A stretch of DNA of 64,000 nt from Candidatus Woesearchaeota archaeon (GCA_018655015.1 JABIKK010000009.1:751-64750), one strand, 5' to 3'. Counted from the stretch's first letter, positions 39,674 to 54,897 are shown. Program-made: numbers and translations. Notes: generated by a model from the sequence alone, not told the origin.

Positions 39674-39757
39674 CTTAAATAAGTTAAGAACTTAAACTAT
39701 TTATAAATTTAGTTTATTTTTCAATAGAGACGAAAATATATCTCCGAAGTATCTGAA

Positions 39758-40252
39758 TTAAAAAACCGGCCGTCCTAATAAATACCCCATCACTTCCATG
39801 GTTCCATTGAATGAACTTCCGCCTGATCTGAACCCTAATTTTTCGTAGAGTCTACGGGCTTCAATGTTCTTTTTTGAAACCGATAATGCAACCATATCTT
39901 TATTTTCTACTTTTGCACGAGCGATACAATCTTTGATTAGACGTGTCCCAATTCCTCTACTTTTTACTTCTGCAATAACCCAATCAATTGTTGTTCTTTC
40001 TCCGTTTAAACTGTCAAACCCCTCTATTAGTAACCCATCTAATGATTCATCTGTGAAATGTGCTACGAATCTGTTTTTGGAATTAGTGCCTAGGTTTCTT
40101 TCGATATATTCTTCAGTGTATTTGTTTTTAGATCTCTCTAGTGGAGACTCATCATACAAATGTCTTACATCCCTTAGTGCTTTATGGAACATAGCTACGT
40201 AGTCAGGAACTAATACTGCATCATCTGAGACTAATATTCTACAAGTTTGCAT
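39758..40252 (-). CDS. GNAT-family acetyltransferase
   Basis: SRGIGTRLI acetyl-CoA motif, N.EARRLYEKLGF. Confidence 0.88.
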   Translation of the reverse strand: MQTCRILVSDDAVLVPDYVAMFHKALRDVRHLYDESPLERSKNKYTEEYIERNLGTNSKNRFVAHFTDESLDGLLIEGFDSLNGERTTIDWVIAEVKSRGIGTRLIKDCIARAKVENKDMVALSVSKKNIEARRLYEKLGFRSGGSSFNGTMEVMGYLLGRPVF

Positions 40253-40404
40253 AAATTTGTTGTTTAAAGTTAGAATAAAAGGCTTTGGATGTTGTGGGTG
40301 GCAGAGTTAAGACTTAACAAGTCTTAAGGTGGGATTCATTTCACAGGAATATTTATAATCTTTCAGTAATTGTTCATATTATTGAATATTAAAAAAGGTG
40401 ATGA

Positions 40405-41259
40405 ATGAAATTTTCAGAAGAAAAAATTAAAAAATTAGTTTGGGATAATTTAAAATGTAATGTTGATCAAATTGTAGATAGTTCTAAGGGTGAAGATCAA
40501 TTAGTAAAAATTGTTAATACTGATAAGGGTAAATTTGTTGTAAAATTTCCAAAAGATAAAGAAATGGTTAATAGGCAGATCTTTGCAAATAATAAACTGG
40601 AAGGGAAAATACCAATTGCTAAGATAATGTATCATACTGAAGACTGTATTCTTGAAACATTTCTTCCTGGAAAGGAATTATCAAGAGTTAAGCTGAATAA
40701 AGTTGAATCATCTAAAATATTTTTGCAGTTGGGAGAAATCTTAGCAAAAGTACACCAAATTAATCTTAAAGGGGTGGGCTTTATTGAAAACCAACAAGGG
40801 AAATATAATTCTATGAAAGAGTTTATCGATGAATATTGGCTTAAAGATAGGCTTAAAGATCTTTTAAAATATAAAACTGTTACAAAAAAAGAGATGATTT
40901 TAATTGAAGAGTATTTGTGTAAACATGAATATCTTCAAAAAACCGAAGAATTTTGCTTGTTACACTTTGACTACATAGATAGTAACATCAAGGTGGATAA
41001 AGGGAATGTTTCGGGAATATTTGATTTTGCAGATATAATCTCTGGACCAAGAGAATTTGATTTTTCTAGATTATATATTGCCCATCATGGTGACATGTTT
41101 GATCTTATTCTAAAAGGATATTCTCAAAAATTAGATATAAACAAAATAAGATATTATTCTGCATTAACTTTAATGAGGCTGTTACCTTATCTTGAGGACT
41201 TAGATTTGAAACAGTACAAAAAAGGGTTAAAACTTATGTGGGACATTGTAGGGAATTAA
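40405..41259 (+). CDS. Aminoglycoside phosphotransferase-family protein
   Basis: KFVVKF, LAKVH, LLHFDYIDSNI, IFDFAD...GPREFD; GGTGA RBS. Confidence 0.85.
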   Translation: MKFSEEKIKKLVWDNLKCNVDQIVDSSKGEDQLVKIVNTDKGKFVVKFPKDKEMVNRQIFANNKLEGKIPIAKIMYHTEDCILETFLPGKELSRVKLNKVESSKIFLQLGEILAKVHQINLKGVGFIENQQGKYNSMKEFIDEYWLKDRLKDLLKYKTVTKKEMILIEEYLCKHEYLQKTEEFCLLHFDYIDSNIKVDKGNVSGIFDFADIISGPREFDFSRLYIAHHGDMFDLILKGYSQKLDINKIRYYSALTLMRLLPYLEDLDLKQYKKGLKLMWDIVGN

Positions 41260-41263
41260 AGAG

Positions 41264-41298
41264 TGCGGCGGCCGTGAAGGCTTAGTTAGTTCTAATGC
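41264..41298. repeat. Left attachment-like site
   Basis: TGCGGCGGCCG-tgaaggc-TTAGTTAGTTCTAATGC; 30/35 identical to 53505-53539. Confidence 0.85.
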
Positions 41299-41343
41299 GC
41301 TAGTGCCTATTTGTTAGTTGGTAAAAGAAGTATTTAATTCTTT

Positions 41344-42171
41344 TTAATTGGTCTTTACGGCATAATCTGTGTTCCACCAATCTGTATTGTAATTTAACGG
41401 AATAATCTTTGCTTCTTTATGCTTATACTGTTCTGGTACCTCTCCAATTTTCCAATTCTTGCCAGTCGTTTCTACATAAAAATATGTTGAACCATTATAT
41501 TCAAATTTCAAAGGGTTTTGTGCAAAAATAGCCTCTGTCCCTGTCTGCTCAAACCAACTTTCAGGTAACCCTAAGTCTGTTAATTTTATTGGGTCAACGG
41601 CAATAGCTATATGGTCGTCATATCGAAGTAATATTGTTTTAAAGCCCAGTGTACCTAACAAACTTGCCATCAGGTAGCTTGTATCTTCACAATCTCCGTT
41701 TTGCTCCACCAACGTCTCTACGGGATATTTGGGATAGTCATCAAAGTTTAGTTTGGCATCTTCTATGTAACTAACCTGTTCAACGAACCTCATAACTTTT
41801 TTTACTTCTCTTGCATCATATGTTCTTACAAAAAACATGTCTTCTAATATAACCTGCATTGACGGGTCCGATATGGTGACATATTCTCCTCCATGCTCTA
41901 CCCTTGGTTTATTTCTATAATAATCATATATATCTAAATCGATAGGTATTTCTTTTTCATTAAATATCTTGATTATTTTTCTGCCATCTCCAAAGGGATG
42001 CTCATCTAATTTGTCTGGGATGGTGTCATTATCTGAGTCCATATCTTGTAGTTTTGAATTAAAAATATTTTCTATAACATCCCCATTATTAATATACACA
42101 AAAGATATTATAATTATTAAACCTATTGTAATCAATAACCAATTTCCAACATTATTAGTTTCTTTTTTCAT
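41344..42171 (-). CDS. Membrane-anchored transglutaminase-like Cys protease-fold protein
   Basis: TM segment; DSDNDTIPDKLD Ca-binding-like repeat; YPKYPVETL..GDCEDTS, HIAIAV, YVETT. Confidence 0.8.
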   Translation of the reverse strand: MKKETNNVGNWLLITIGLIIIISFVYINNGDVIENIFNSKLQDMDSDNDTIPDKLDEHPFGDGRKIIKIFNEKEIPIDLDIYDYYRNKPRVEHGGEYVTISDPSMQVILEDMFFVRTYDAREVKKVMRFVEQVSYIEDAKLNFDDYPKYPVETLVEQNGDCEDTSYLMASLLGTLGFKTILLRYDDHIAIAVDPIKLTDLGLPESWFEQTGTEAIFAQNPLKFEYNGSTYFYVETTGKNWKIGEVPEQYKHKEAKIIPLNYNTDWWNTDYAVKTN

Positions 42172-43193
42172 TATTCACAGTATGGGTCTTCAGAACAATC
42201 AGAGTCTTCACAGTCCATTAGTTTATCTCCATCATTATCTTTGTAATCATTACAAATTTCTTGAAGCTCTTTGCACCACTCTTTTCTCGAGTATACTTGC
42301 TCGTCTCCTTCATCATAGAATACTTCACAAGTATACTCGTATACATCTATGCTTTTGAAGTTATAAATTTCAAATTGAATCGGTTTTGTTTTAACTTGCC
42401 AAGTTTGGTCGCATTCATCTGTCCTAGGAGGACAGCTAGGTATCAAATCTGTCCCTTCGTACATCTTTTCAAAATTTTCCGGAAGGTCTCCGCGAGATTT
42501 GTAAATTTCTATTTTAATATTAATATCTTCATTGAAATAAACTCCTTTTCTTAATAATGGATTTCCATATACTGGAATTTTCCATACAAATAATCCTTGG
42601 CCTTTTAGTAAAGGGTTGTATCCCAAACATTTTCCTTCAGTAATATAAAAAATTTCTTTTCCAATCTTTGTTTCTTTTGTACTAATATTTTCTTCACAAG
42701 AATCCACAAAATAATCTTCTAACCATAAATCCTCGATGTACTCTGGATAGAATGCTCCTCCCATGCCCATTCTTGGACCATAGTTTAGTAAATCTGCACC
42801 ATATTCCTTAAGATATTTTAATTGAATTGTTCTAAATTTTTCTTGCATTATATTAGCAGTGTAGTAATTATCTGCAGATATTTTGATTCTTACAAAAGGA
42901 TATTCTTCATTAATTCCTAATTTATCAAATTCTAAATAAATTCTATCTTCTACATCTTCAAAGCCATAATAATAAGAATTAAGATTTTTATTTTGTGCTG
43001 GAGTGACGTACTTAAGAATCATAGTTTCATTATAAACTAATATTTCTTCATCAGAAGTTTCTTTAGTTTCAATTTCTACATCCTCTGTTTCAACAATTAA
43101 TGGTTTTTCTTCTATTTTTGAAACCTCTTGAGAATTACATCCTACAAGTGTTAAAGATAGAATTATTAAAACTAAAACAGCTATTTTTCCCAT
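42171..43193 (-). CDS. Lipoprotein with C-terminal Cys/Asp-rich Ca-binding-like motif
   Basis: Lipobox LVGC; EICNDYKDNDGDKLMDCEDSDC. Confidence 0.75.
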   Translation of the reverse strand: MGKIAVLVLIILSLTLVGCNSQEVSKIEEKPLIVETEDVEIETKETSDEEILVYNETMILKYVTPAQNKNLNSYYYGFEDVEDRIYLEFDKLGINEEYPFVRIKISADNYYTANIMQEKFRTIQLKYLKEYGADLLNYGPRMGMGGAFYPEYIEDLWLEDYFVDSCEENISTKETKIGKEIFYITEGKCLGYNPLLKGQGLFVWKIPVYGNPLLRKGVYFNEDINIKIEIYKSRGDLPENFEKMYEGTDLIPSCPPRTDECDQTWQVKTKPIQFEIYNFKSIDVYEYTCEVFYDEGDEQVYSRKEWCKELQEICNDYKDNDGDKLMDCEDSDCSEDPYCE

Positions 43194-43290
43194 AGTTCTG
43201 CATCATTTTTGAGATATTTAATCTTTTCTAAAAAACCGACCCCCCTAAGAATTAAGAAAGGATTAAATATTCATTTTATCTCAGATATCT

Positions 43291-43776
43291 GTGAAATTAA
43301 TATGTTTTAATAAGTATTTTATCTTAATTGGCCTACTAACATTGGTTTTAGTTAATAATTCTTTAGCTAATGAAGAGATTTCACCAGATGACAATTTGTT
43401 CGAAAAAGAGAACAATTTTTTTCAAAGTATTTTTCATTGGTTTTTAGATTTATTTGAAAGTGAAACTGCCGTTGTTGATTCTGTTGAAAGTACGGATTCT
43501 CCAAAATTAGATGCTTTACATGTTATTGAAGAACAATCAAAAGAGGGAAAACCTAAACATGTTACTAATGAGACTTGTGATGGTTGCAAGATATTTGATA
43601 TAAACTGGACTAGACAAGAATGTTTTTCCGAGAATTTTATTTGTCCTGCAGATGTAAAAGGGAAGTCTCTTGGATGTATGCCTGCATTTCCCAATAGAGA
43701 TTATGCCAAGTTTTGTGTTGAACCCTGTCTGAGTTGGATTATAGAAACTTGCGGTTTTGAAGGTTATAATTCATAA
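43291..43776 (+). CDS. Secreted protein with C-terminal six-Cys domain
   Basis: Signal-like N-terminus; WTRQECF...CP...CMP...KFCVEPCLSWIIETC. Confidence 0.7.
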   Translation: MKLICFNKYFILIGLLTLVLVNNSLANEEISPDDNLFEKENNFFQSIFHWFLDLFESETAVVDSVESTDSPKLDALHVIEEQSKEGKPKHVTNETCDGCKIFDINWTRQECFSENFICPADVKGKSLGCMPAFPNRDYAKFCVEPCLSWIIETCGFEGYNS

Positions 43777-43807
43777 TGAAATTTAAAAGTACTGTTAAAT
43801 TATTGTT

Positions 43808-44263
43808 TTATTCTTGCCATTTCTTCCCATAGTATAATTCTTCACAAGGAATATTATCTCCGTCCCTATCTAAATGGTGCACGTCGTTTGTTACACCTCC
43901 GCACCCATCATATGTTTTTTTTGCTTCAGAATATGTACTAAAATCAGCACAATTGTATTTATTGTAGCTGCAAATAAGGCTGTCACTTTTAGGTTGTTCT
44001 ACTTCTCCCCCATATAATTCATTTCCTATTTCAGATTCTTTACTATATTCATAGGTAGGTGTGCTCTCACTCTTTTGTTGTTCTAATTCTTCTATCTTTT
44101 CCATTATCAATTTATTTTGTATTTCATGGTCCTCGCCATATTTTTCCTCAAGATACTTATCACTAAGAGAGGTGTAAAAATAACCAAATATCAATATTAC
44201 TATAAAAATTGCTATGTATGGATGTCTCTCAATGAAGTTGTTGTCTTTCATTGTTTCTTCCAA
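43808..44263 (-). CDS. Membrane-anchored excalibur-like Ca-binding protein
   Basis: YNCADFSTYSEAK...DVHHLDRDGDNIPCE. Confidence 0.8.
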   Translation of the reverse strand: MEETMKDNNFIERHPYIAIFIVILIFGYFYTSLSDKYLEEKYGEDHEIQNKLIMEKIEELEQQKSESTPTYEYSKESEIGNELYGGEVEQPKSDSLICSYNKYNCADFSTYSEAKKTYDGCGGVTNDVHHLDRDGDNIPCEELYYGKKWQE

Positions 44264-44547
44264 TAATCTTTAAAGATTAAAACTCCAAACACTAATTGCA
44301 TTACGCCATAAATATTCCAACTGCCGGACCCAAAAGCTGTATTTGATAATCCTACAACAAACATCATTGCACCCAATAAGAGATACATTCTTCTCTCTCT
44401 AATGTAAAGTGCCAAAGCACCAATAAATATTAGTAAATAGCCCCAGCTAGAACTTAAAAATCCACTAAGAAGTTGGTGAAGCAAGCCCATGATGATTAGT
44501 ATTGTTCCCCATAACTTCAAATCGTAACTTATTTCATCTTTTTTCAT
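44248..44547 (-). CDS. Small multi-pass membrane protein
   Basis: Four short hydrophobic helices. Confidence 0.65.
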   Translation of the reverse strand: MKKDEISYDLKLWGTILIIMGLLHQLLSGFLSSSWGYLLIFIGALALYIRERRMYLLLGAMMFVVGLSNTAFGSGSWNIYGVMQLVFGVLIFKDYWKKQ

Positions 44548-44549
44548 TT

Positions 44550-45338
44550 TTAATAAAAAGTTATACTATTTAATAAATCATCAAATTCGTAAACATAATC
44601 TACTAGTTCCGTTGTTGCTTCAAAAGACAAGAGTAAGGGCTTATCTAAGAATACTACATTTTTTGTATAATATATATCTCCATCTAAATAATATTTTAGT
44701 TCATTAACCACTGCCTCGTATCCGTTTGAAGTTTTAATTATTCTATTTTCTCTTTCTAAAATTTTTACACCTGCAACTTCTTCAATCATATCGAATCCTT
44801 TGTCTAACCCTTCCTGAAATTCTTGGATTCCGTCACGAACAGAATATTCTCCAAACAATTCTTCTGCATCAACAATCCAAATACTAACAGATTCATATCC
44901 TGCATCATCTGTAGCAAGGTAATAATAAGGAACACCGAGACCTCCAAATTTAACATCCTTAACAATATAATATCCTGGAGGTTCTTGGAAACTCATAATA
45001 TCCTCTAAATAAATTATATTATTTTCGCTAATCTCTTCAGTCATTTCAATTTTATGGAAAAATACATCGGCTTCATCTGCACATATATTGGGCATTTCGT
45101 CATCCCTTATACAACACATAACGCCTATTTTCTCTTTAGGCAGTTTACAGTCATTTGTATCAATTAACACATTTTTATCTTCAACAACCTCATATATATT
45201 ATCTACTCCAATAATATCAGATTCATAGGGCCCTCCAAAAAGAAATAGAACGTAAATTATCAAAAGGCCGAATCCTACTGCATAAAGTATATCTTTCAAA
45301 AAATTTCTTTTTTTTGGCATAATCTTATAGGATATCAT
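44550..45338 (-). CDS. Membrane-anchored extracellular protein (possibly PsbP-like C-terminal domain)
   Basis: TM segment, C...CC...C motif, SFQEPPGY...FDDLLNSITF. Confidence 0.6.
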   Translation of the reverse strand: MISYKIMPKKRNFLKDILYAVGFGLLIIYVLFLFGGPYESDIIGVDNIYEVVEDKNVLIDTNDCKLPKEKIGVMCCIRDDEMPNICADEADVFFHKIEMTEEISENNIIYLEDIMSFQEPPGYYIVKDVKFGGLGVPYYYLATDDAGYESVSIWIVDAEELFGEYSVRDGIQEFQEGLDKGFDMIEEVAGVKILERENRIIKTSNGYEAVVNELKYYLDGDIYYTKNVVFLDKPLLLSFEATTELVDYVYEFDDLLNSITFY

Positions 45339-45430
45339 GAATATATAAATCTATCAGAATCAATAAGGCACAATTAAGGTATAAGTTTGTGTTGTCTCAA
45401 AAAATTATTCAAATTACGGTATTGGCCAAG

Positions 45431-46573
45431 TTAAATAAACAAATCGAAATTTCTTTTTTTAGTTAAATCTTGGGGTAATGGCAGCCCTGGACATTCATTA
45501 AATAACTTAGTCATTTCTTTTTTTTCTTGTTCGGACATAGCACTCCATTTTTTTGGAGAAAGGACAAAGTTTTCACAGTACAATACTATTAAATTATTTA
45601 CTACAGTATTTACTTCTGCATCTGAAAATTCAGACATTTGTTTTGTGAATTCTTCCATTTTCGAATCATTACTCAAGTAAGAGAGTAAAATGTACGTTTT
45701 TCCATTTTGTGGGAAGATTGTAAAAATCATTGGCTGTGGAATGGATTTATAATCTTCTAAATTGTTAATCATCTTTCCTTTAAAATCGTATACTGGATAA
45801 AAACAAGAACTTACTGCAACAGAATAATCTCTGTCCAATATTACTAGTTTTGTTTTAATCCCTCCAAATTTGGAATTGATTAAACAATGGTCTAACTTTT
45901 CCTTTATTTTTCCTAAATCATTGAGGCCAACCTCATTACCCATTATCAAGTTATTAATTGAAGGATAATTGTTTCCTTTAATTTTTATGAACTCTTTCAT
46001 TTCAGATATGACACTTTTTTTTGCCATTATCTCTTTAGCTATTGACCTGTATGCGTACAAAAAACATTGTTCTTCATTCTTTGGTTCAAAATCTATTTGT
46101 TCTATAGGTAGGAATAATGCACTATCATGTTTTGAACAAAAACCCTTAAATGTAGTCGCCTTTCCCCTACCTACAAGTTCTGCACCACAGTTATTAATTT
46201 GAATAATATCTCCGTCTTCAGAAATTTTATTTAATATTTTGTTATTTTGTATGGAGTGTGCCTTAATTATTTTTTTATCACATTCATCTTTATTTGGGTG
46301 GAGACATTCTCTTGTATCGGATTTTCTTTTTAATTTTGTTGATAATTTGCTAAATTCAATCTTTCTGCTAATTACTTTTTTTTGCCTTGGAATTTTTACC
46401 TTGCCATTGATTATTTCTAACTTATGGACACTTATTAATTTTTTAACCCTAAATAATACTTTATCACTTAGCACTCCTGTTATTTCTTGCAGTTTTGCAC
46501 TTAATTCTTCAAGAGAAAATGAACTATCTTCTTCTCCTAATAAATTGAATATCTGGGGTTCCAATTTGGACAT
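45431..46573 (-). CDS. Hypothetical protein with N-terminal wHTH-like segment and HNH-like Cys/His domain
   Basis: CLHP...C...IIKAHSIQ...ATTFKGFCSKHDS.LF..IE, a motif set I recall from SEC-C-associated proteins. Confidence 0.65.
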   Translation of the reverse strand: MSKLEPQIFNLLGEEDSSFSLEELSAKLQEITGVLSDKVLFRVKKLISVHKLEIINGKVKIPRQKKVISRKIEFSKLSTKLKRKSDTRECLHPNKDECDKKIIKAHSIQNNKILNKISEDGDIIQINNCGAELVGRGKATTFKGFCSKHDSALFLPIEQIDFEPKNEEQCFLYAYRSIAKEIMAKKSVISEMKEFIKIKGNNYPSINNLIMGNEVGLNDLGKIKEKLDHCLINSKFGGIKTKLVILDRDYSVAVSSCFYPVYDFKGKMINNLEDYKSIPQPMIFTIFPQNGKTYILLSYLSNDSKMEEFTKQMSEFSDAEVNTVVNNLIVLYCENFVLSPKKWSAMSEQEKKEMTKLFNECPGLPLPQDLTKKRNFDLFI

Positions 46574-46617
46574 AATTTAAACCTACAAGTTAGTACTTAA
46601 AAATTAGCACGTAGTAC

Positions 46618-46857
46618 TTAATTCAAACTAATCAATAAGTAAGCTCTGCCATTCTTAGAACCTTCTTTTGTCTTTTCAATCTTAATTATTTTGAAGTATT
46701 CTAATTCTTCAGAGTGACGTTTTAGAGTATTATATCCTATATTCAGCTTTGTTTCTAATTTTCTTAATGAAATTGGACCCTTTTGAAGAGCATTTACTAT
46801 TTTTTTCTTAATTTCTAATCCAGAAGAGTATTTTTTCATGCTAACAATAGATAGCAA
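46618..46857 (-). CDS. Small winged-HTH (ArsR-like) regulator
   Basis: KIVNALQKGPISLRKLETKLNIGYNTLKRHSEELE...NGRAY. Confidence 0.8.
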   Translation of the reverse strand: MLSIVSMKKYSSGLEIKKKIVNALQKGPISLRKLETKLNIGYNTLKRHSEELEYFKIIKIEKTKEGSKNGRAYLLISLN

Positions 46858-46872
46858 GATTTATATATCTGG

Positions 46873-47211
46873 ATGCCAAGAATTGTTAGCATGGGTAAAA
46901 GAACAGGAGAATTCGTTTTAGGTATTTTGGGCGGTTTAATTGGAATCCCTTTTGGAATTTTTGCAATGGTAGTTGGAGGTATTGACTCAGTAATTGGTGG
47001 TGGCTCAACTATTATTGGTTTAGGGTTTGCAGCAATATTATTTTCTGTTTTAGGAATAATTGGCGGTGCTTTTGTTAAGAGTAAAAGAAAACTAGGCGGT
47101 TGGTTTATGACAATTGCTTCAATAGGAGGATTTATTAGTATAAGTTTATTCTATATTGTACCAGGTTTACTGTTGATAAGTGGTGGACTCTTGGCATTGT
47201 TAAGAAAATGA
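46873..47211 (+). CDS. DUF4064-like small membrane protein
   Basis: KRTGEFVLGILGG...SVLGIIG..VK.K.KLGG. Confidence 0.7.
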   Translation: MPRIVSMGKRTGEFVLGILGGLIGIPFGIFAMVVGGIDSVIGGGSTIIGLGFAAILFSVLGIIGGAFVKSKRKLGGWFMTIASIGGFISISLFYIVPGLLLISGGLLALLRK

Positions 47212-48014
47212 AGTTAAAACTAAGTTTAGGAATATTATTAATTAGTTTAATCTTTTTAGTTGGATGCTCTCCTAAGGAGTATGTTTGTTCAGATAGTTCT
47301 GTTGTTTCTTCTCCAGAAGAATGTGGAACTACTGAAGTACTTTCAGAAGACACAGGTTTAGCTAAACACTCTGCAATATTAATTATTGAAGACCCTTCAG
47401 ATTCAGAGTATTACACTCATGAACCTAGCTTATTTATTGAAAATACGGGTGATTCAGTAATTAAGATTTCATTAGATGTTAGTATCCTTGATGGAGATAA
47501 ACTTTTACAAAAGGACAATAATGTTCTGTTTTTGACAGGTAGCATCGATTCGATAGACTTGATTTATCCTGGTGAATCAGTTAGAGGTTACTTGAATTAT
47601 ATGGACGATAGGGAAACAAAGTACAATTGGAAACTCCAAGTAGATTTAAGGGATGGTTCCTCTGCAAAAATAATAACTAGTGACTATGCCTGCTTGAACC
47701 TTGGTTGTGAAGACATTAAGGAAGTTAAGCTTAAAGAGGTTGAAGAAGTTATTCCTTGGGAAGATTACCTTGAAGAGTGTACATCTAAATTAGCAAAAAC
47801 TACCTACCTATCAAATAAAAATTATTATATTGATGAATGTGAATCTGAATACTCTGTAAGGTTTAATTTACCTGAATATTGTGAGTTGGTTGATGATATG
47901 AGTAAAAGTCTTTACTGTTGGAAAAGACTTGCTGTTAACAATGGCAATGAAGACTTTTGTGATAATCTTCATGGTGCGGACAATCTAGAATGCATTAGAA
48001 ATGTTAATTATTAA
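47208..48014 (+). CDS. Cys-rich lipoprotein
   Basis: Lipobox LVGC; YVCSDSSVVSSPEEC; C-terminal C...C repeats. Confidence 0.75.
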   Translation: MKLKLSLGILLISLIFLVGCSPKEYVCSDSSVVSSPEECGTTEVLSEDTGLAKHSAILIIEDPSDSEYYTHEPSLFIENTGDSVIKISLDVSILDGDKLLQKDNNVLFLTGSIDSIDLIYPGESVRGYLNYMDDRETKYNWKLQVDLRDGSSAKIITSDYACLNLGCEDIKEVKLKEVEEVIPWEDYLEECTSKLAKTTYLSNKNYYIDECESEYSVRFNLPEYCELVDDMSKSLYCWKRLAVNNGNEDFCDNLHGADNLECIRNVNY

Positions 48015-48067
48015 GAAGATATTTCTTTCGTTACCTTAATAAGTAATAACGACGTAAGTTAAAATAT

Positions 48068-48313
48068 ATGGCGTCTTCAAGAAACCTAGTAAAGAAAGAG
48101 AAACTATTAATGCTCGAGCATGAATTCAGTAAAAGCCTTACATTTTTATTAATTGGCTTTGCATTTACCTTCGGATTAGCCACATTTGCATTAGAAGAAG
48201 GAATTATAAAATTCTTCACTGGCTTGATTTGTTTACTACTTGCATTCTCGGCAATCAAACCAAGTAGGAAAGTAATTTCTTCTGTCAATGAGCTAAAAAT
48301 GATGTATAAATGA
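48068..48313 (+). CDS. Small two-TM membrane protein
   Basis: 81 aa with two hydrophobic helices. Confidence 0.55.
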   Translation: MASSRNLVKKEKLLMLEHEFSKSLTFLLIGFAFTFGLATFALEEGIIKFFTGLICLLLAFSAIKPSRKVISSVNELKMMYK

Positions 48314-48360
48314 TATTTCAATAAAATGCCCATTAAGCAAGGATTAATGCACATTAAATC

Positions 48361-48424
48361 CTTTTTTTGTCTTAAACTATCTTACTTTTTGTGTTAGTAT
48401 GTGTTACTTTTTGTCTTACTTTTT
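48361..48424. repeat. Iteron-like imperfect direct repeats
   Basis: TTTTTGT(C/G)TTA three times at ~22 bp spacing; TTACTTTTT at 48382, 48404 and 48416; just downstream of the Rep-like gene. Confidence 0.6.
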
Positions 48425-48454
48425 ACCCATGCAAACTCTCTGAATTATACTAAC

Positions 48455-49276
48455 TTATTTCTTAGGGGATTCATACTTATTTACTTCATCTTTAAAGCGT
48501 TTTTTCTCCTTTTCTAGGTCTTCATACCCTACAAGGACCTCTATGTCTTCAAGAGAATTTTTAGGGGATTCAGCTTCAAGCTCGTATCTACCATGAGATT
48601 TATCTACAGCAATACCCCTATTTGAGTAATTATGTTTGTGCTTTACAATGTAAGACTCTGCTATTATTGAATCTAATATAGCAACATGCATGCAGGAATA
48701 CCTTGCAGGTTTGTAACTGTCTACCTTTAGTCCATTAAATTCAGATTTTAAAACTTGAATTATCTGTGTTATAAATTCAGTTATGGCCATCATGATTTCT
48801 TCATCATCGTTTCCATACACATCAGGTATTTTCACCACTGCCTTTTTCCCCCCATAAAACATAACTTTGCTTCCAAGTACTTCTGTTTTTAATCCGGAAT
48901 ACCTATTATTAGAAAAAGGAGTAAACATATAACCTTGAATGTCTTCAAAATTCTTTGGAAGTTTAGATAAATAAATTACAATTTGAATCTTGTGTGCTCT
49001 TAGTTTTACCCCTAAATCTTTATCCCATTGTTTCCAATATCGTAATATCCTCTTACATTTGTCTGTTAACTTGTTTTGTTTATCTATTAATCCCCATTCT
49101 CTTAATTTAGTAAAATGGTAGTTTAATGTAGTATTAGGCACTCCTAACTTATCTGATATGTCTGTTTGTTTGATTAATAATGATTCATCCATTGAATGGA
49201 TAGTCAATATAATCTTTAGTTTTGTTCCTTTGAGTGGAACCGTATAGTTACTAATAAATTTACTAATTTTTTTCAT
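48455..49276 (-). CDS. wHTH-containing putative replication/maintenance protein
   Basis: N-terminal wHTH (QTDISDKLGVPNTTLNYHFTKLREWGLID); LRAHKIQ, HVAI.D, VDKSHG..ELE; sits between an RHH gene and repeats. Confidence 0.5.
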   Translation of the reverse strand: MKKISKFISNYTVPLKGTKLKIILTIHSMDESLLIKQTDISDKLGVPNTTLNYHFTKLREWGLIDKQNKLTDKCKRILRYWKQWDKDLGVKLRAHKIQIVIYLSKLPKNFEDIQGYMFTPFSNNRYSGLKTEVLGSKVMFYGGKKAVVKIPDVYGNDDEEIMMAITEFITQIIQVLKSEFNGLKVDSYKPARYSCMHVAILDSIIAESYIVKHKHNYSNRGIAVDKSHGRYELEAESPKNSLEDIEVLVGYEDLEKEKKRFKDEVNKYESPKK

Positions 49277-49286
49277 CTTATTTAGT

Positions 49287-49430
49287 TCACCTATTCAAAA
49301 AATTCCTAATTATTTTTGAACGGCTTACTCCTTCACTTTTTGCTATCTCACCAACTTCGGAATAGAATGTCCTGTCAAGGAACACTACAACTCGTACTTT
49401 GTTTTTATTTGGCATAGCTCCAGCTATCAT
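49287..49430 (-). CDS. CopG-like ribbon-helix-helix protein (47 aa, not in ORF track)
   Basis: Own translation: MIAGAMPNKNKVRVVVFLDRTFYSEVGEIAKSEGVSRSKIIRNFLNR; alternative start at 49415. Confidence 0.8.
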   Translation of the reverse strand: MIAGAMPNKNKVRVVVFLDRTFYSEVGEIAKSEGVSRSKIIRNFLNR

Positions 49431-49468
49431 TGTTGGTACACTAAATCATTTAAAGAAAAAAAATTCAA

Positions 49469-49678
49469 CTAGTTGTTACACTTGTTTCCTTTTTCTTTAT
49501 TTTTTATTGTCTTTAGTTCCTCCTTCAAATTATTCCAAAATTGTGATAGTGATGGGTTAGGTTGTTCGATGGTTTGTTTTTCCTTCTTTACAGAGTCAGA
49601 TAATGTCATAGAAACTCTAAATCGAAAGGATTTTAAGTTAATTACTTCCCACATATTTTGTGACATTTTTAACTCCAA
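49469..49678 (-). CDS. Small hypothetical protein
   Basis: 69 aa ORF co-oriented with the RHH/Rep-like genes; start uncertain. Confidence 0.4.
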   Translation of the reverse strand: MELKMSQNMWEVINLKSFRFRVSMTLSDSVKKEKQTIEQPNPSLSQFWNNLKEELKTIKNKEKGNKCNN

Positions 49679-50268
49679 AAGAGATACAATACCTCCAAAA
49701 GAAGCATAAGAAGGGAGAATACAGAAGAAGGATTGCTGCCAAGTGGATGAAGCTTTGTTCTAGTAAAAATGCCTTTTTGGATTTTTCATGGTTTTTATCC
49801 AGTTATTCTGTTTTGAAAATAGGTGAAAAACTAAAAGTTAGAAAGATGGTTTATGATTTATTTCACGAACCTTATTTTTATTCTCAACTATGGAACGATA
49901 TGCCTCTTAATGATAAATCCCACATCACTAAAATGTTGTATTGGAGTTGTAATGAGGGATGTAGAAAATCTATCATGGAGTCATTACAATCATCTACTTC
50001 TAAACCTGAAATTTCAAAAGGAGATTTGAAGAAAAGAAATATTTATCTTAAGAACGTTGATAAGATTACTGATTACTTAATTGACAATAGAATTGATGAA
50101 TATGTTATTGCAGATAATATCTTGGAAGAAATGGTTAATAACCTCTGTAAGAACAATTACAAATTTATTAAAATTTGTGATATAAGGAATGAATTCCTCA
50201 AGATAAAACAAAAATGTGTAGCAAAAGGAAAGTTTAAGAAAAATATTGGAAGGCCTGCTAAAAAATAA
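49660..50268 (+). CDS. Hypothetical basic protein (possible regulator)
   Basis: 202 aa, divergent from the RHH/Rep-like module, C-terminal GRPAKK. Confidence 0.6.
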   Translation: MTFLTPKEIQYLQKKHKKGEYRRRIAAKWMKLCSSKNAFLDFSWFLSSYSVLKIGEKLKVRKMVYDLFHEPYFYSQLWNDMPLNDKSHITKMLYWSCNEGCRKSIMESLQSSTSKPEISKGDLKKRNIYLKNVDKITDYLIDNRIDEYVIADNILEEMVNNLCKNNYKFIKICDIRNEFLKIKQKCVAKGKFKKNIGRPAKK

Positions 50269-50271
50269 ATT

Positions 50272-51048
50272 CTAACAATGTGGCCCTGTAGAATTGCCCA
50301 TGTAGTTGTTGTCTCGGCCATTCACACAATAATTGTTGTTTAGTTCATCCCAAACATTAGATACATCCCAAACCTCATTTAACCATATATTATTTGGACC
50401 TTTCCAAGTGTTAACAATATTGAAACCGAGATTATTTCCGCTAAAAAGATTTTTAGTTATGTTTATTCCTCCAACATCATCTGTTTCTAACCCTCTTGTG
50501 TTATTTATTACTCTGTTAAATGCAAAAGTATTATTTTCAGTTTGTTCGAATCTGATACCATTACTGTTGTTAGTCAAATTATTATATAAAAAGTAATTAT
50601 TGCTGCTTTGTAATGCTGCATAAATTCCATAATAACTGTCGTAAAGAGAATTATTTATCACTGTATTGTTTTTAGGCCATAAAAGATATAATGCTATATT
50701 GTAATTAGTTATTGTACAATCTTTAATTACTATGTTTTCACTTACATAAGATTCTATCCCTTTAACCCCATGAGTATAATTATTATGTGGGCCCACTAAT
50801 TTTGCACCATTGCAGTCAAAAGTCATATTTTCCCCGCGATGAATTTTTAATCCATTAGGCAAATAGTATGTTCCGGAACAAAGAATAGTATCTTCAGAAA
50901 ACACTTGACCATCTTGAGGTACAACACACTTAGGGGAAGGACTAATTATTTGTGAGTTACCTGCAGGAGTTATAGAAACTGTTTGAGCTAAAACAGATAT
51001 ACTAAATGCTATTAAAAATACTGATATAATAAATATTGATTTTTTCAT
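50272..51048 (-). CDS. Secreted parallel beta-helix (NosD/CASH-like) protein
   Basis: Signal peptide; DCNGAKL; repeated NN....N.....GI turns. Confidence 0.85.
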   Translation of the reverse strand: MKKSIFIISVFLIAFSISVLAQTVSITPAGNSQIISPSPKCVVPQDGQVFSEDTILCSGTYYLPNGLKIHRGENMTFDCNGAKLVGPHNNYTHGVKGIESYVSENIVIKDCTITNYNIALYLLWPKNNTVINNSLYDSYYGIYAALQSSNNYFLYNNLTNNSNGIRFEQTENNTFAFNRVINNTRGLETDDVGGINITKNLFSGNNLGFNIVNTWKGPNNIWLNEVWDVSNVWDELNNNYCVNGRDNNYMGNSTGPHC

Positions 51049-51117
51049 GTTCCTAACCTATAGTCTAGAGTATATAAGTTTTTCTAGGAAACAGCTAAAT
51101 CAGGAAAATTTAATTAT

Positions 51118-51513
51118 TTAGGATACCATTCCTTCAAGATTACATGTCTCTATTAGCCATGTTCTGCAAGGATTTGCACAAAATTTAGCTAGGTTGTTAT
51201 AGGTCTCCTCATCCCAATTTTCTGGAATTAGGCAGTCAAGATATTCCATTTTTGGACACACAAAATATTCTGCAAAACATTCTTGTGTAGTCCAAGTTGC
51301 ATTGGGACCATAAGTTTGATTCGCCCCTTTTACCAATTTTTCATACTTTTCTGTTAAGTTTTCTACAACAACAATTTCTATTTCTTCCACTATAAGAATT
51401 GAGATATTGGTCTCGTTGATAATTGGAATTACTTCTAAGCTTGGTTCTTGATTGTTAAGGAAGATTGTTAAAATTACTACAATGCTTAAAGTTATAATTA
51501 ATGTTTTTTTCAT
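51118..51513 (-). CDS. Secreted protein with six-Cys domain (paralog of 43291-43776)
   Basis: WTTQECF...CP...CLIP...KFCANPCRTWLIETC. Confidence 0.7.
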   Translation of the reverse strand: MKKTLIITLSIVVILTIFLNNQEPSLEVIPIINETNISILIVEEIEIVVVENLTEKYEKLVKGANQTYGPNATWTTQECFAEYFVCPKMEYLDCLIPENWDEETYNNLAKFCANPCRTWLIETCNLEGMVS

Positions 51514-51516
51514 TTT

Positions 51517-52167
51517 TTAATCTTTAGACATAGTGTCCAATATTTTGCCACCAATTATCAACAATACAAAGAATACTGTAAAGAACCCTATCGCTCCAGC
51601 AACCATTGAATTGTCAGCAAATGCCTTTTCGTAAACTGTGGTTGCCCAGTAAGTAATTCCTACAATCGCACTGAATTTGGCAGAAATTTTCATTCTTTTT
51701 TTTGAGAATGTTTTTTTTAGCCAGTTATTTTCTAACTCTAAGTCTTTAATTGTGATTTTTTGTGATTTTTTTACTAAATCTGTTTCTTTTTTGAAACAAT
51801 TAATTACCTCTCCATATAGTAAATTATTTACCTCCCCTTTTATCAAACAATCTTTTAGTCTGTAACATTTTTTTAATGCCTTCATTTTCCTTTCTGCATG
51901 ACTGTCAGAATATAGATTAATACTTGCGAGTGATATAAGCACCAAAATTACTCCAATAATCATTGAAAGTTTGGAATAAGGAAAGTCTTTCTTAACATAA
52001 TCTATCATTAAATAAAGCATATTAAAACAAATTAAAACCATAAATAATGCAAATGGGATAACCTTTCCAGAAATATTGCTCCAAGAATGTTTGTGAGAAG
52101 TTTCATAGTAACAGATTATGTTATCTATGATTTTCAATTTTTTGCTAATTATATTTGCACTATCCAT
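51517..52167 (-). CDS. Hypothetical membrane protein (two TM pairs)
   Basis: Two pairs of hydrophobic helices separated by a charged linker. Confidence 0.6.
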   Translation of the reverse strand: MDSANIISKKLKIIDNIICYYETSHKHSWSNISGKVIPFALFMVLICFNMLYLMIDYVKKDFPYSKLSMIIGVILVLISLASINLYSDSHAERKMKALKKCYRLKDCLIKGEVNNLLYGEVINCFKKETDLVKKSQKITIKDLELENNWLKKTFSKKRMKISAKFSAIVGITYWATTVYEKAFADNSMVAGAIGFFTVFFVLLIIGGKILDTMSKD

Positions 52168-52191
52168 GGGAAATATTAAATTTATAAGTTA

Positions 52192-53463
52192 TTAACTCTT
52201 CCTAAACTCGTCCATAATGTCAATAAAGCTCTTTTCTGGGTGCTTCACGGCATAAGAGAATACTTCCATGATTTCTTTTTCAGCAGCCCTGTTACTCTTT
52301 ATTACTTCTCTATCAGTCAATCTATTACAATGGATACATATTTTTTCAGAGAACCCAATTGTTTTTCCGCAGATACATGTTTTTGTAGAAGGTGATAAAT
52401 CCTCGAACTCTTTTTTATCTATCATGCCCCTTTTAGCAAGTTCTCTTTTGAAAGTATCTTCTGCCCCAGACATATCATAAGTTTGTAATTGTTTTGTTGA
52501 AGTCCAACCTGCTCTATGTTGAATGTCTACATCAGAATCACCTCTCAGTCTACTAAACGTTACACCATTTCTTTTTAGCGAATATGGAGTTATTTTTTTA
52601 TCAATGTTTAATTTTTTACAAGCCAACTTTAATTTTTTATTCATGTTGTCAGGAGTTATTGGCCTATCCTTGCTTCCATTGGAAAAAAATAGGTATGCAT
52701 CTTTATCTCCTTTGAAAGGATGTTTTGAATACCACTTAATGAAATAAGGGAATGAATCTATACACTGTAAAAACTTAACTCCTTCCTTGCCATGCGAACT
52801 AATCCAAATCTTTGCATATTCTTCATTAATTTCTACATCTGATATTTTGGTGTAGCATAACTCTTGTGGCCTTGTTAGGGATTCTACAGATAGAGTGATG
52901 TATGCTTGAATCTGAGGATTATCACTAAAGTATTCTATTATTCTTTCATACTCAAAAAGAGTTAACTTATCATTTCTTCTTACTTCCCTACTTTTGTCAA
53001 TCTTTGGAGATAAGTGCCTTACAGGATAAGGAGTAATCATTTCGTCAATTCTACCACGTTCATCCCTCTCGGGAAATAATTGTTTCCACATGAACTTAAT
53101 ATCCCTAATAAAATCAGATTTAGTCTTTGGACTTTTGTTCATTGTATGACTAAAAGCAACAATTTCATTGATATCCTCTCTTTCACAATCTTTCAAATCT
53201 TTTGTTGTTGCAAAACTTAACATCCTTAAAGTTCCAAGAAGTCTTAGTCTTCGAATATAACTTGTGTCCCTGCTATCAAAGATTTTGCCAAACTGTCTAA
53301 AATATTGCAGATTAACTTTGTTCTTACAGTAGTACTTAGCAACCTTAGATGTTAACTTTGTTAGGTCATCAATGTTCGACATGAACTTTTCGTACCGTTT
53401 TTTACTTCCGTATATGTCTTCTTCTGGCATTTTGTGCTCCCAGGACAGATATATTTTGTCCAT
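52192..53463 (-). CDS. Tyrosine recombinase/integrase with C-terminal zinc ribbon
   Basis: LTRPQEL (R), HGKEG (K), PYSLKRNG, HRAGWT, QTY (Y); CICG...CIHC. Confidence 0.9.
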   Translation of the reverse strand: MDKIYLSWEHKMPEEDIYGSKKRYEKFMSNIDDLTKLTSKVAKYYCKNKVNLQYFRQFGKIFDSRDTSYIRRLRLLGTLRMLSFATTKDLKDCEREDINEIVAFSHTMNKSPKTKSDFIRDIKFMWKQLFPERDERGRIDEMITPYPVRHLSPKIDKSREVRRNDKLTLFEYERIIEYFSDNPQIQAYITLSVESLTRPQELCYTKISDVEINEEYAKIWISSHGKEGVKFLQCIDSFPYFIKWYSKHPFKGDKDAYLFFSNGSKDRPITPDNMNKKLKLACKKLNIDKKITPYSLKRNGVTFSRLRGDSDVDIQHRAGWTSTKQLQTYDMSGAEDTFKRELAKRGMIDKKEFEDLSPSTKTCICGKTIGFSEKICIHCNRLTDREVIKSNRAAEKEIMEVFSYAVKHPEKSFIDIMDEFRKS

Positions 53464-53504
53464 TTAAACCATTTAGTGCACTGTGCATAAGAAAGAACAT
53501 AATC

Positions 53505-53539
53505 TGCGGCGGCCGAGATAAATTAGTTAGTTCTAATGC
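53505..53539. repeat. Right attachment-like site
   Basis: TGCGGCGGCCG-agataaa-TTAGTTAGTTCTAATGC, 41 nt upstream of the integrase start; minus strand ends ATCTCGGCCGCCGCA, like a tRNA 3' end. Confidence 0.85.
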
Positions 53540-53624
53540 TATGGAACCCATTCTATAAATGGCATTTGTCACACTTACCTTCTTTCCAGATAAGTTAATT
53601 TAAGTATTTAGTCAATTAAAACTT

Positions 53625-54341
53625 ATGAATTGTTTAGACAATAAATTAAATCAACTAAATGTAAAGACTAGTAAAAAAAGGTATTATAATTCAGAATATG
53701 CTAAAGTAACAATTCCTGATAAATCTTCTTTTGAGCTAGGAGAATTTGTAGGAGCATTTTCAGGAGACAGGAATTACTGTTTTAATGAAAAAACTGGACA
53801 CCATAGAATAAGAATATATCTTCATAAAAATGACGATATTGATTATGCATATATCTTAAAAAGTCTGATAAAAAAACTTTTTAATAAAACTGCTTGCACA
53901 TATTCTAAAGAAAATTGCTTAATAATTAGTATGTCAAGTAGAAAAATCTATGATGTTTTAAAATTAATCTTGTTTTTTGGAAACTATAAAACCTTGAACG
54001 TCTCATTAAATGGAGAGGTAAATGATTATGATTGTTCTTTTTTGAGAGGTTTTGTTCGGGGATTAATGGATACTGACGGATATGTTAGTACTAATGGAAA
54101 TATTTGCATAGGATTAATATCTGAACTTGCAATAAACCAATTAAGTGAAATCTTTGTAAAAGAAAATTTAATCTTTACTAGAAGTAAAAGAAAAGTTAGA
54201 GGTAAAATGAAATACCCCCTTCATATGTTAAGTATCTCTCGCAAATCTACTAAAAAATATCTTGAGATTATAGGATTTTCAAATCCAAGAAAAAGAAAAT
54301 TTGCAGTTGAAAGAAATTTAAGTGCGGTAGGAGGGATTTGA
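53625..54341 (+). CDS. Free-standing LAGLIDADG homing-endonuclease-family protein
   Basis: ELGEFVGAFSGDRN and LRGFVRGLMDTDGYV motifs; C-terminal IGFSNPRK. Confidence 0.85.
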   Translation: MNCLDNKLNQLNVKTSKKRYYNSEYAKVTIPDKSSFELGEFVGAFSGDRNYCFNEKTGHHRIRIYLHKNDDIDYAYILKSLIKKLFNKTACTYSKENCLIISMSSRKIYDVLKLILFFGNYKTLNVSLNGEVNDYDCSFLRGFVRGLMDTDGYVSTNGNICIGLISELAINQLSEIFVKENLIFTRSKRKVRGKMKYPLHMLSISRKSTKKYLEIIGFSNPRKRKFAVERNLSAVGGI

Positions 54342-54396
54342 ACCCTCATTAGAGCGTTGGCAACGCTCCGTAATAACCAGGTTATACTACTACCGC
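54323..54396 (-). tRNA. tRNA-Gly (GCC)
   Basis: GCGGTAG/CTACCGC acceptor stem, GAGCG-TTGCCAA-CGCTC anticodon arm, GAGGG-TTCAAAT-CCCTC T arm; CCA not encoded. Confidence 0.95.
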
Positions 54397-54477
54397 ATTG
54401 GTTCAATAATTTTCTAAATAGTATATAAATATTTTGTGGATGGAAATGTATATAAGTCCCTCTTAAATGGGAAAGAT

Positions 54478-54897
54478 ATGACCTATGATTTTGTTATATG
54501 TTCTGGATACTTTAATCCATTACATAAGGGACATGTTGAGTATTTACAACTAGCTAGGAAACTTGGAAAAGAATTGTGGGTTATAATGAATAATGATGAA
54601 CAAGTTAAGATTAAGGGTTCTAAGCCTTTCATGGATCTAGATGAAAGATGTGTGATTGTTAAAGAGTTGAAGTCTGTTGATAATATTTTTATTAGTGTTG
54701 ATACTGATCCAAGTGTTTGTGAATCAATTAAAGAGTTAGGTAAGAAATTAGGTGGTACGAAGTGTTTTGCTAAAGGTGGAGATAGGTTTGTTAATGAAAT
54801 ACCTGAAGCAAAGATTTGTATGGAATTAGGAATTGATATTGTTGATGGGCTTGGTAAAAAGATACAGAATAGTAGTGACTTGTTGAAGGACTATTGA
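54478..54897 (+). CDS. Cytidylyltransferase-family protein (TagD/FAD synthetase-like)
   Basis: SGYFNPLHKGH HxGH motif, KGGDR, NSS; ATG at 54478 preferred over GTG at 54436. Confidence 0.88.
   Translation: MTYDFVICSGYFNPLHKGHVEYLQLARKLGKELWVIMNNDEQVKIKGSKPFMDLDERCVIVKELKSVDNIFISVDTDPSVCESIKELGKKLGGTKCFAKGGDRFVNEIPEAKICMELGIDIVDGLGKKIQNSSDLLKDY

Follow-up and report, generated by a model that had tools for sequence, protein, structure and literature searches.

A 12.2-kb integrative element of a Woesearchaeota-like archaeon, probably inserted into the att scar of an earlier relative

Classical, non-suicidal archaeal integrases of the SNJ2 and pNOB8 types are described in a review on the subject as having tRNA 3' ends as their targets and very short cores (PMC8371274). 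The element considered here lies in a stretch of 64,000 nucleotides from a Candidatus Woesearchaeota archaeon (GCA_018655015.1, JABIKK010000009.1:751-64750; hereafter the window, with positions counted from its first letter), in which a low-GC segment of 12.2 kb is bounded by a pair of two-part direct repeats and carries a tyrosine integrase next to the right-hand one. This segment, 41264-53515, is probably an integrative element of about 12.2 kb of a Woesearchaeota-like DPANN archaeon that recombined into the leftover attachment (att) scar of an earlier relative. Like the classical elements, it has an intact integrase gene adjoining the core, and the core is the extreme 3' end of a tRNA, namely that of sister species; unlike them, it rebuilds no tRNA in its own genome, and its target would have been a scar. 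It also differs from elements with suicidal integrases of the SSV and pTN3 type, where attP lies inside the gene and the gene is split on integration: here the open reading frame (ORF) is intact (412-423 aa) and the core stands upstream of the gene.

Tandem accretion at a single att locus is known from Sulfolobales (Redder et al. 2009, as cited in PMC8371274), and phage tandems with integrative and conjugative elements (ICEs) in bacteria (PMC13651849) and accretion of ICEs and of integrative and mobilizable elements (PMC5704250) have also been described. As in such accretion, the incoming element would have recombined with attL or attR of a resident to give hybrid junctions, in which a core stands between the two element arms (P-core-P'), and one congener carries a true two-unit array; unlike in the usual case, the resident is reduced here to 24-37 nt, so that the array mimics a single element with two-part repeats. 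Fragments of tRNA genes left by element integration have been described as well (PMC9897764). The 11-mers of the present repeats resemble those fragments in being partial tRNA 3'-end copies made by integration and differ from them in matching the tRNA-Gly of sister species and not that of their own genome.

A further comparison is with Tn916 and CTnDOT, whose inverted ends have the coupling sequences between them and which can use targets unlike attP. As in those elements, a 7-bp stretch differs between the two ends of the segment; unlike them, the identical blocks are direct repeats, the tRNA target in a congener shares the 11-mer only, and the two relatives with both ends identified have one contiguous identity block. 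The two-part repeat is likely to have an ordinary explanation, namely integration at a tRNA end followed by decay of an earlier resident. The underlying biology would not surprise a specialist, and the element joins a known class in a little-studied host group; to our knowledge, the mobile elements of DPANN archaea have been little described. Its interest lies in a tRNA-Gly(GCC) locus that has served repeatedly as an integration hotspot within one genus of marine Woesearchaeota-like archaea, in an uncharacterised integrase family that uses very short tRNA-end cores (11-13 nt) there, and in a caution for automated island callers, which expect a rebuilt tRNA and one contiguous repeat.

The repeat pair and its tRNA-Gly core

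The window was compared with the assembly from which it comes (G000; 16 contigs, 700,797 bases, 92% complete), with eight congeners and with a wider set of 61 genomes. Both repeats read TGCGGCGGCCG-N7-TTAGTTAGTTCTAATGC on the plus strand (41264-41298 and 53505-53539), with all 28 specified bases exact in both copies in a pattern search that allowed up to three mismatches; none of 100 shuffles gave two or more matches. A sequence-only reading of the window had described just this architecture, with identical arms of 11 and 17 bp around 7-mers (TGAAGGC on the left, AGATAAA on the right) that differ at five of seven positions, and its minus-strand reading of both copies, TC(A/T)CGGCCGCCGCA, is likewise correct. 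The pair ranks first among the direct repeats of the region and can be extended to 48 nt (77% identity); past the 17-mer, 7 of 13 positions still agree. The 11-mer and the 17-mer each occur exactly twice in the assembly, both times at these repeats, and a search for more copies of the repeat in the genome found none beyond the two junctions. Both junctions were also assembled independently: the left one in a contig of run X1 that covers 39745-41713 without a difference, the right one in a second contig of that run (53411-55240) and in a metagenome contig of 1128 nt that matches 53266-54393 at 99.8%. Each repeat begins with a copy of the core:

41264..41274, plus strand: left att core (O), TGCGGCGGCCG, the reverse complement of the congener tRNA-Gly(GCC) 3' end CGGCCGCCGCA
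53505..53515, plus strand: right att core (O), TGCGGCGGCCG, identical to the left core at 11 of 11 bases

The resemblance of the 11-mer to a tRNA 3' end, noted earlier from the minus strand, proves to be exact: these very 11 nt close tRNA-Gly(GCC), which ends CGGCCGCCGCA, in three of the seven congeners in which this gene was read (G002, G007 and G008). The same tRNA ends in CGGCCACCGCA in G006 and is of the CCTACCGCA type in G001, G003 and G004, as it is in G000 itself. Scans with ARAGORN and Rfam found no partial tRNA at either repeat; the sole tRNA in the window is the tRNA-Gly(GCC) nearby, and both methods agree with the sequence-only reading that neither copy belongs to a full tRNA and that the neighbouring tRNA-Gly ends differently (CCCTCCTACCGCA). 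A tRNA starting GCGGCGG, for which the sequence-only reading had suggested a search, is not among the tRNAs of the 92%-complete assembly; CCGCCGCA occurs there at the two repeats and at one non-tRNA site on contig C8, none of which fits such a tRNA.

What the core does can be read most directly in G008, a member of the same genus, where an integrase 92% identical to that of the window adjoins the same P arm, after which come the same 11-mer and a complete tRNA-Gly(GCC); the contig stops within the integrase gene. A full tRNA is rebuilt at the integrase-proximal junction there and not at that of G000. When the flanks of the eight closest integrase homologues (E<=1e-60) were collected, a tRNA 3' end was found to adjoin the integrase in six of them: tRNA-Gly in G008 and G050, tRNA-Leu in G052, tRNA-Glu in G030 and intron-containing tRNAs at G055:C1 and G055:C5. 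The distal repeat was found in two of the three relatives searched, in each case as a single contiguous 13-nt copy of the tRNA 3' end, bounding inserts of 4.1 kb (G050) and 8.6 kb (G030). Since these two carry one contiguous block and most of the close homologues adjoin tRNA 3' ends, the usual att identity of this integrase family appears to be a single short block of 11-13 nt at the tRNA 3' end, in keeping with the very short cores that the review describes for integration at tRNA 3' ends (PMC8371274). The att core proper is the 11-mer, which would contain the crossover.

The tRNA-Gly genes that end in the core (G008, G002 and G007) have a U5-G68 wobble pair in the acceptor stem, as against U5-A68 in G006, and the element-supplied 3' end appears to alter one base pair of the host tRNA.

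Arms, spacer and the two junctions

Next to the cores stand two arms, which can be followed into the congeners:

41275..41311, plus strand: predicted P' arm, the spacer TGAAGGC and then an inverted-repeat arm that starts with the 17-mer and runs on to ...GCGCTAGTGCCTA
53445..53504, plus strand: predicted P arm, the upstream region of the integrase, holding the inverted partner of the 17-mer (GTGCACTGTGCATAAGAAAGAACATAA), which ends 2 nt before the core

Beside the core, the P arm is conserved in G008, G002 and G052, and part of it is left in G007. On the other side, G008:C42 carries the core, TGTGAAA and ATTATTTTATCTAATGCGATAGTACCTAG..., and its positions 4285-4359 are 76% identical over 75 nt to 41264-41338 of the window. 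The motif CTRATGC recurs at a fixed offset, 17 nt past the core, in four arms (left and right in G000, G008:C42 and G002:C3:3419). The two arms pair as inverted repeats in G000, TTATGTTCTTTCTTATGCAC-AGTGCACTA with TTA-GTTAGTTCTAATGCGCTAGTGC-CTA; a P/P' alignment as good was reached by 67 of 2000 shuffles in G000, by 39 of 2000 in G008 and by 3 of 2000 in G050, where the motif is a different one. We infer that the arms bind the integrase. Because they sit 2 nt before and 7 nt after the core, the centre of the dyad falls between core bases 8 and 9, at the centre of the palindrome CGGCCG, and strand exchange with an overlap of 6-8 bp would take place at CGG|CCG, the point at which T stem and acceptor stem meet in the tRNA.

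On this arrangement the 17-mer is best read as part of the element's own P' arm and not as a second core arm, and the label of a bipartite att site given to the repeats earlier is misleading, the core being the 11-mer. The 7-mer is different in all five arms seen (TGAAGGC, AGATAAA, TGTGAAA, GGAGCTA and TGGATTA) and would be an unconstrained spacer between core and arm, derived from two generations of element, and not an overlap region. The opposite view makes the 7-mer the overlap and the 11-mer and 17-mer the core-binding arms of the integrase, with the mismatch tolerated as in Tn916 and CTnDOT and each junction keeping its own 7-mer after replication. It can point to identical arms around 7 bp that differ at five of seven positions, to 7 bp being the classic overlap length, and to the G008 junctions (GGGTTCG in the tRNA against TGTGAAA in the element, past the same 11-mer), which are compatible with it in that one in four segregation outcomes looks so. 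However, the real target in G008, its tRNA-Gly, shares the 11-mer only; nothing like the 17-mer follows the core there, and the 17-mer is therefore unneeded in attB. Moreover, the 11-mer and 17-mer do not mirror each other as inverted repeats would, since the 17-mer has its partner beyond the 11-mer, inside which the dyad centre falls, and G050 and G030 have one contiguous identity block of 13 nt. Even this view still requires a target that already bore both arms, that is, an att scar. Heterologous recombination over the 7-bp stretch, which the sequence-only reading had offered as one of two possibilities, found no positive support and is highly improbable.

The possibility that the 17-mer belongs to a dispersed repeat family linked to integrases was rejected, as the outside copies examined have no core beside them. 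With up to two mismatches the 17-mer occurs at 45 places in 25 of the 61 genomes, as against 16 places for a reversed control; its sole exact copy outside G000 is in G018:C92, and copies with one mismatch stand at G000:C3:8306 and G008:C5:2264, none of them adjoined by a core. Nor is the whole 35-mer a frequent dispersed repeat unrelated to integrases, the pattern being confined to the element junctions in the assembly and the contig collections searched. The 16/17 copy at G000:C3:8306-8322 is intergenic, among housekeeping genes (between a 174-aa ORF and DsbD/thioredoxin genes), with no core or integrase near; a single near-copy of this kind is slightly above chance expectation.

The junctions themselves are set in the following surroundings:

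39758..41259, mixed strands: accessory left flank, with a GNAT acetyltransferase (39758-40252, minus) and an APH-type kinase (40405-41259, plus), both from Pfam
53516..53552, plus strand: candidate P'-arm remnant of an earlier related element, with spacer AGATAAA, the 17-mer and 13 nt of which 7 agree with the live P' arm
53572..54341, plus strand: resident DNA shared with G003, an upstream region and a LAGLIDADG_3-domain ORF (53625-54341; Pfam and local alignment)
54322..54396, minus strand: host tRNA-Gly(GCC), with 3' end CTCCTACCGCA, which has TGCGG alone in common with the core and no CGGCCG palindrome

On the left, the stop codon of the APH gene lies 4 nt upstream of the core, giving the order APH stop codon, AGAG, core, P'; on the right, the order is integrase, P arm, core, AGATAAA, 17-mer, 13 nt at 7/13 and about 20 nt of other DNA. 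The right junction is accordingly read as attP-like, a P-core-P' hybrid, and the left one as attL-like, an ordinary flank-core-P' junction. This retains one part of an earlier suggestion, that both junctions are attP-like and that the element integrated into the att scar of a relative: scar integration and the attP-like right junction stand, and the left junction turns out to be of the ordinary attL type. The interpretation of 53516-53571 as native DNA homologous to G003 was rejected; a long local alignment ran through it, and for the stretch alone 1335 of 5000 shuffles scored as well. A degenerate core at the GNAT end, 39767-39777, was likewise set aside, having three mismatches and the opposite orientation.

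Why a scar and not the tRNA would have been used is suggested by the host gene. The host tRNA-Gly agrees with the core at 7 of 11 bases and with CGGCCG at only 2 of 6, and it would on that account be a poor partner for an exchange that depends on homology. The course of events that we favour runs as follows. The element would be moved by a classical tyrosine integrase with its att site outside the integrase gene, attP consisting of the core flanked by two inverted-repeat arms, one between integrase and core and the other beginning with the 17-mer 7 nt beyond the core. Strand exchange would occur inside the core at CGG|CCG, the dyad centre, and it is at exactly the CGGCCG bases that the host tRNA-Gly would have diverged. 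Because of this divergence, the incoming element would have recombined not with the tRNA but, within the 11-mer, with the core and P' arm that an earlier relative had left 0.8 kb downstream of it. The outcome would be flank-core-P' on the left and, on the right, integrase, P, core and the old P' remnant. That remnant, of 24-37 nt and directly adjoined by the element, does lie 0.8 kb downstream of the tRNA-Gly.

Scars and arrays in congeners

Scars or arrays occur at the tRNA-Gly(GCC) locus in four of the seven congeners examined. In G008 the other junction consists of chromosomal genes (GATase, DoxX, nitroreductase and Na/Ca exchanger), a 17-nt P-arm remnant, the core and P'; the remnant is identical to the P arm of G000 and not to that of G008 itself, so an element with G000-type arms was formerly there. 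In G007 the tRNA-Gly is adjoined by the core and by a remnant of the P arm, of which 17 nt match G000 exactly, and an integrase is absent. In G002 the tRNA end is followed by a 3.4-kb unit that lacks an integrase; P', core and P come next, then an integrase ORF of 354 aa, and host genes begin at 5379. This is a two-unit tandem array. In both G002 and G008 the contigs are broken right at the core. Hybrid P-core-P' junctions thus recur outside G000, at G002:C3:3419 and G008:C42:4285. G004 is collinear with the window over an SNF transporter, a 105-aa ORF, the tRNA-Gly and a cytidylyltransferase; between the 105-aa ORF and the tRNA-Gly it has only about 545 bp, with TGCGGCGACCG and a 131-aa SnoaL ORF, where G000 has 14.6 kb. 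The element is absent from this syntenic site, at which a core-like scar stands. The locus looks unoccupied in G006, and no core-like sequence was found anywhere in the G003 genome.

Two copies of the core bound the 3.4-kb unit of G002 (G002:C3, 1-3429), which has a P'-type arm on one side and a P-like arm (GCAT + 16 nt) on the opposite side. The unit might be a satellite that the integrase next to it mobilises in trans.

The same comparisons bear on a different history, in which a host with a matching tRNA-Gly gave rise to the whole array (GNAT-APH flank, core, element, core, P' remnant), which then entered this genome as a block by homologous or illegitimate recombination, with no site-specific integration here. 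The host tRNA-Gly lacks the core; the GNAT-APH segment is absent at the collinear locus of G004, with no APH homologue at E<=0.001 in the eight congeners; the GC content is low from 40 kb on (0.297 for 40001-41000, against about 0.34 in the flanks); and the right boundary passes into DNA without significant similarity to G003 before G003-like sequence begins at about 53572. The GNAT-APH flank is probably older island DNA. However, no donor array came to light: the 35-mer pattern, searched as GGCGGCCG-N7-TTAGTTAGTTCTAA, has no match in a genome contig collection or in a viral contig collection, and GGCCG-N7-17-mer has one match in metagenome contigs, the window's own right junction. Further, the core-like scar at the same locus in G004 places such cores in the clade already. 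Transfer as a block is thus unlikely, and it alters the history and not the identity of the att parts. Among viral contigs neither the P-arm 29-mer nor the integrase has a match, and in the genome contig collection the integrase is found in one contig only, which carries the 92% homologue.

Several observations weigh against integration into a scar as set out above. Two of the eight closest homologues have no tRNA beside the integrase (G055:C12, with only an 11-nt tRNA-like end, and G051, with none), and the distal att repeat (attL) of the G052 element was not found within the 15 kb examined. The support for the inverted repeat is modest in G000 and G008 (p ~0.02-0.03), and in G030 it is not significant, 1553 of 2000 shuffles being as good. 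There is no second element body beside the first in G000, only the 24-37 nt of P'-like sequence; the body of the earlier element would have to be gone, and the next 20-30 nt, to about 53571 (53553-53571), belong to the stretch without significant similarity to G003 DNA. An identity of 17/17 beside one of 2/7 is more of a mosaic than would be expected had two arms simply diverged, and the G008 arm shares only 11/17 with the 17-mer; constraint alone therefore does not account for the perfect identity of the 17-mers, and a recent sibling element or gene conversion is assumed. This history does not account for how a core of the sister-clade tRNA type first arrived in a host whose tRNA-Gly lacks it. 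No empty site or free attP was found in the three contig collections or the runs, and no circle or skipping joint at the cores in the contigs of four marine runs, which are of low depth, so that rare forms drop out.

The last of these results also suits the view that the island is dead and the 35-mers are stable chromosomal repeats that no longer recombine, as does a cargo with no recognisable mobility genes apart from the integrase. Against it, the integrase ORF is intact, the cores are identical at 11 of 11 bases and the element is missing from the syntenic site of G004, while low-depth contigs are unable to show rare forms; a fixed relic is very unlikely.

In run X7 a more abundant relative (contig depths 28 and 35) has the 5' region of the integrase (window 53398-53483) followed by a different core, TGCGGAGGACA. 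One X7 contig joins 41315 (from the window 41271-41315 side) to 53398, with 30 nt only on one side and unknown letters between; this joint might represent an internally deleted element.

A broader and rather doubtful proposal goes further. The site recognised by the integrase may be dyad-symmetric and about 50 bp long, made of two inverted arms, a tRNA-derived core and a free spacer, such that scars keeping the core and one arm (24 nt in G000, 17 nt in G008) would serve as portable landing pads and free the element from its tRNA target. Were this true, such sites would open to the element family those hosts in which tRNA-Gly had drifted out of range, and the trimming of remnants to near arm length in two genomes would reflect function and not chance.

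Integrase, element body and neighbouring genes

The integrase and the remainder of the element comprise the following features:

52192..53463, minus strand: tyrosine integrase, longest ORF 423 aa, intact, its 5' end facing the right repeat
41312..52191, mixed strands: element body, about 16 ORFs, most of them ORFans coding for secreted or membrane proteins
43808-44263, minus strand: Excalibur-domain protein in the element body
46873-47211, plus strand: DUF4064 protein in the element body
48455-49276, minus strand: winged helix-turn-helix protein in the element body
50272-51048, minus strand: NosD-like beta-helix protein in the element body

The integrase has the catalytic domain of tyrosine recombinases (PF00589, E=1.2e-11; phrog_1 integrase), and its residues 169-330 align with XerA (5hxy, E=3e-07), including the region of the catalytic terminal Tyr; the same alignment shows no conservation of the His of HxxR. 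Since the homologues begin MAE(E/D)D and the representative of its database cluster has 412 aa, the true start is probably Met12, at 53430, which would give a protein of 412 aa. The right core (53505-53515) then lies 74 nt upstream of the likely start, or 42 nt upstream of the longest ORF, and the gene is unsplit. The family to which the enzyme belongs comprises 454 proteins at E<=1e-10, the best 120 of the 454 being at least 47% identical, and its named sources are Woesearchaeota, Nanoarchaeota or "archaeon" metagenome-assembled genomes; it is a large and uncharacterised integrase family of these lineages.

One of its members, 52% identical to the integrase of the window and situated near position 10717 of G055:C12, has an 11-nt tRNA-like end, TGCGCAGGCCG, next to it and non-tRNA DNA beyond, which makes a further junction without a tRNA. 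That contig (13,959 nt) was considered as a free circular element and rejected, as it has no terminal overlap.

The GC content is 0.29-0.33 across 40-54 kb, as against about 0.34 outside. Profile scans detected no viral hallmark (capsid, terminase) and no replication family among the ORFs of the element.

Beyond the right junction, the LAGLIDADG_3 ORF (238 aa) overlaps the 3' end of the host tRNA-Gly by 20 nt and has 51% amino-acid identity to a homologue at the same place in G003 (tblastx); it also bears a weak resemblance to the intein part of a model for the V-ATPase A subunit. The motif TAAAAAACCG(G/A)CC..CCTAA stands just past gene ends at 39759-39784 and 43229-43254 and may be a terminator-like signal. 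Finally, two paralogous small, secreted, Cys-rich proteins are encoded inside the element in opposite orientation, at 43291-43776 (plus) and 51118-51513 (minus), and yield a 41-nt inverted repeat with 83% complementarity (43606-43646 and 51254-51294).

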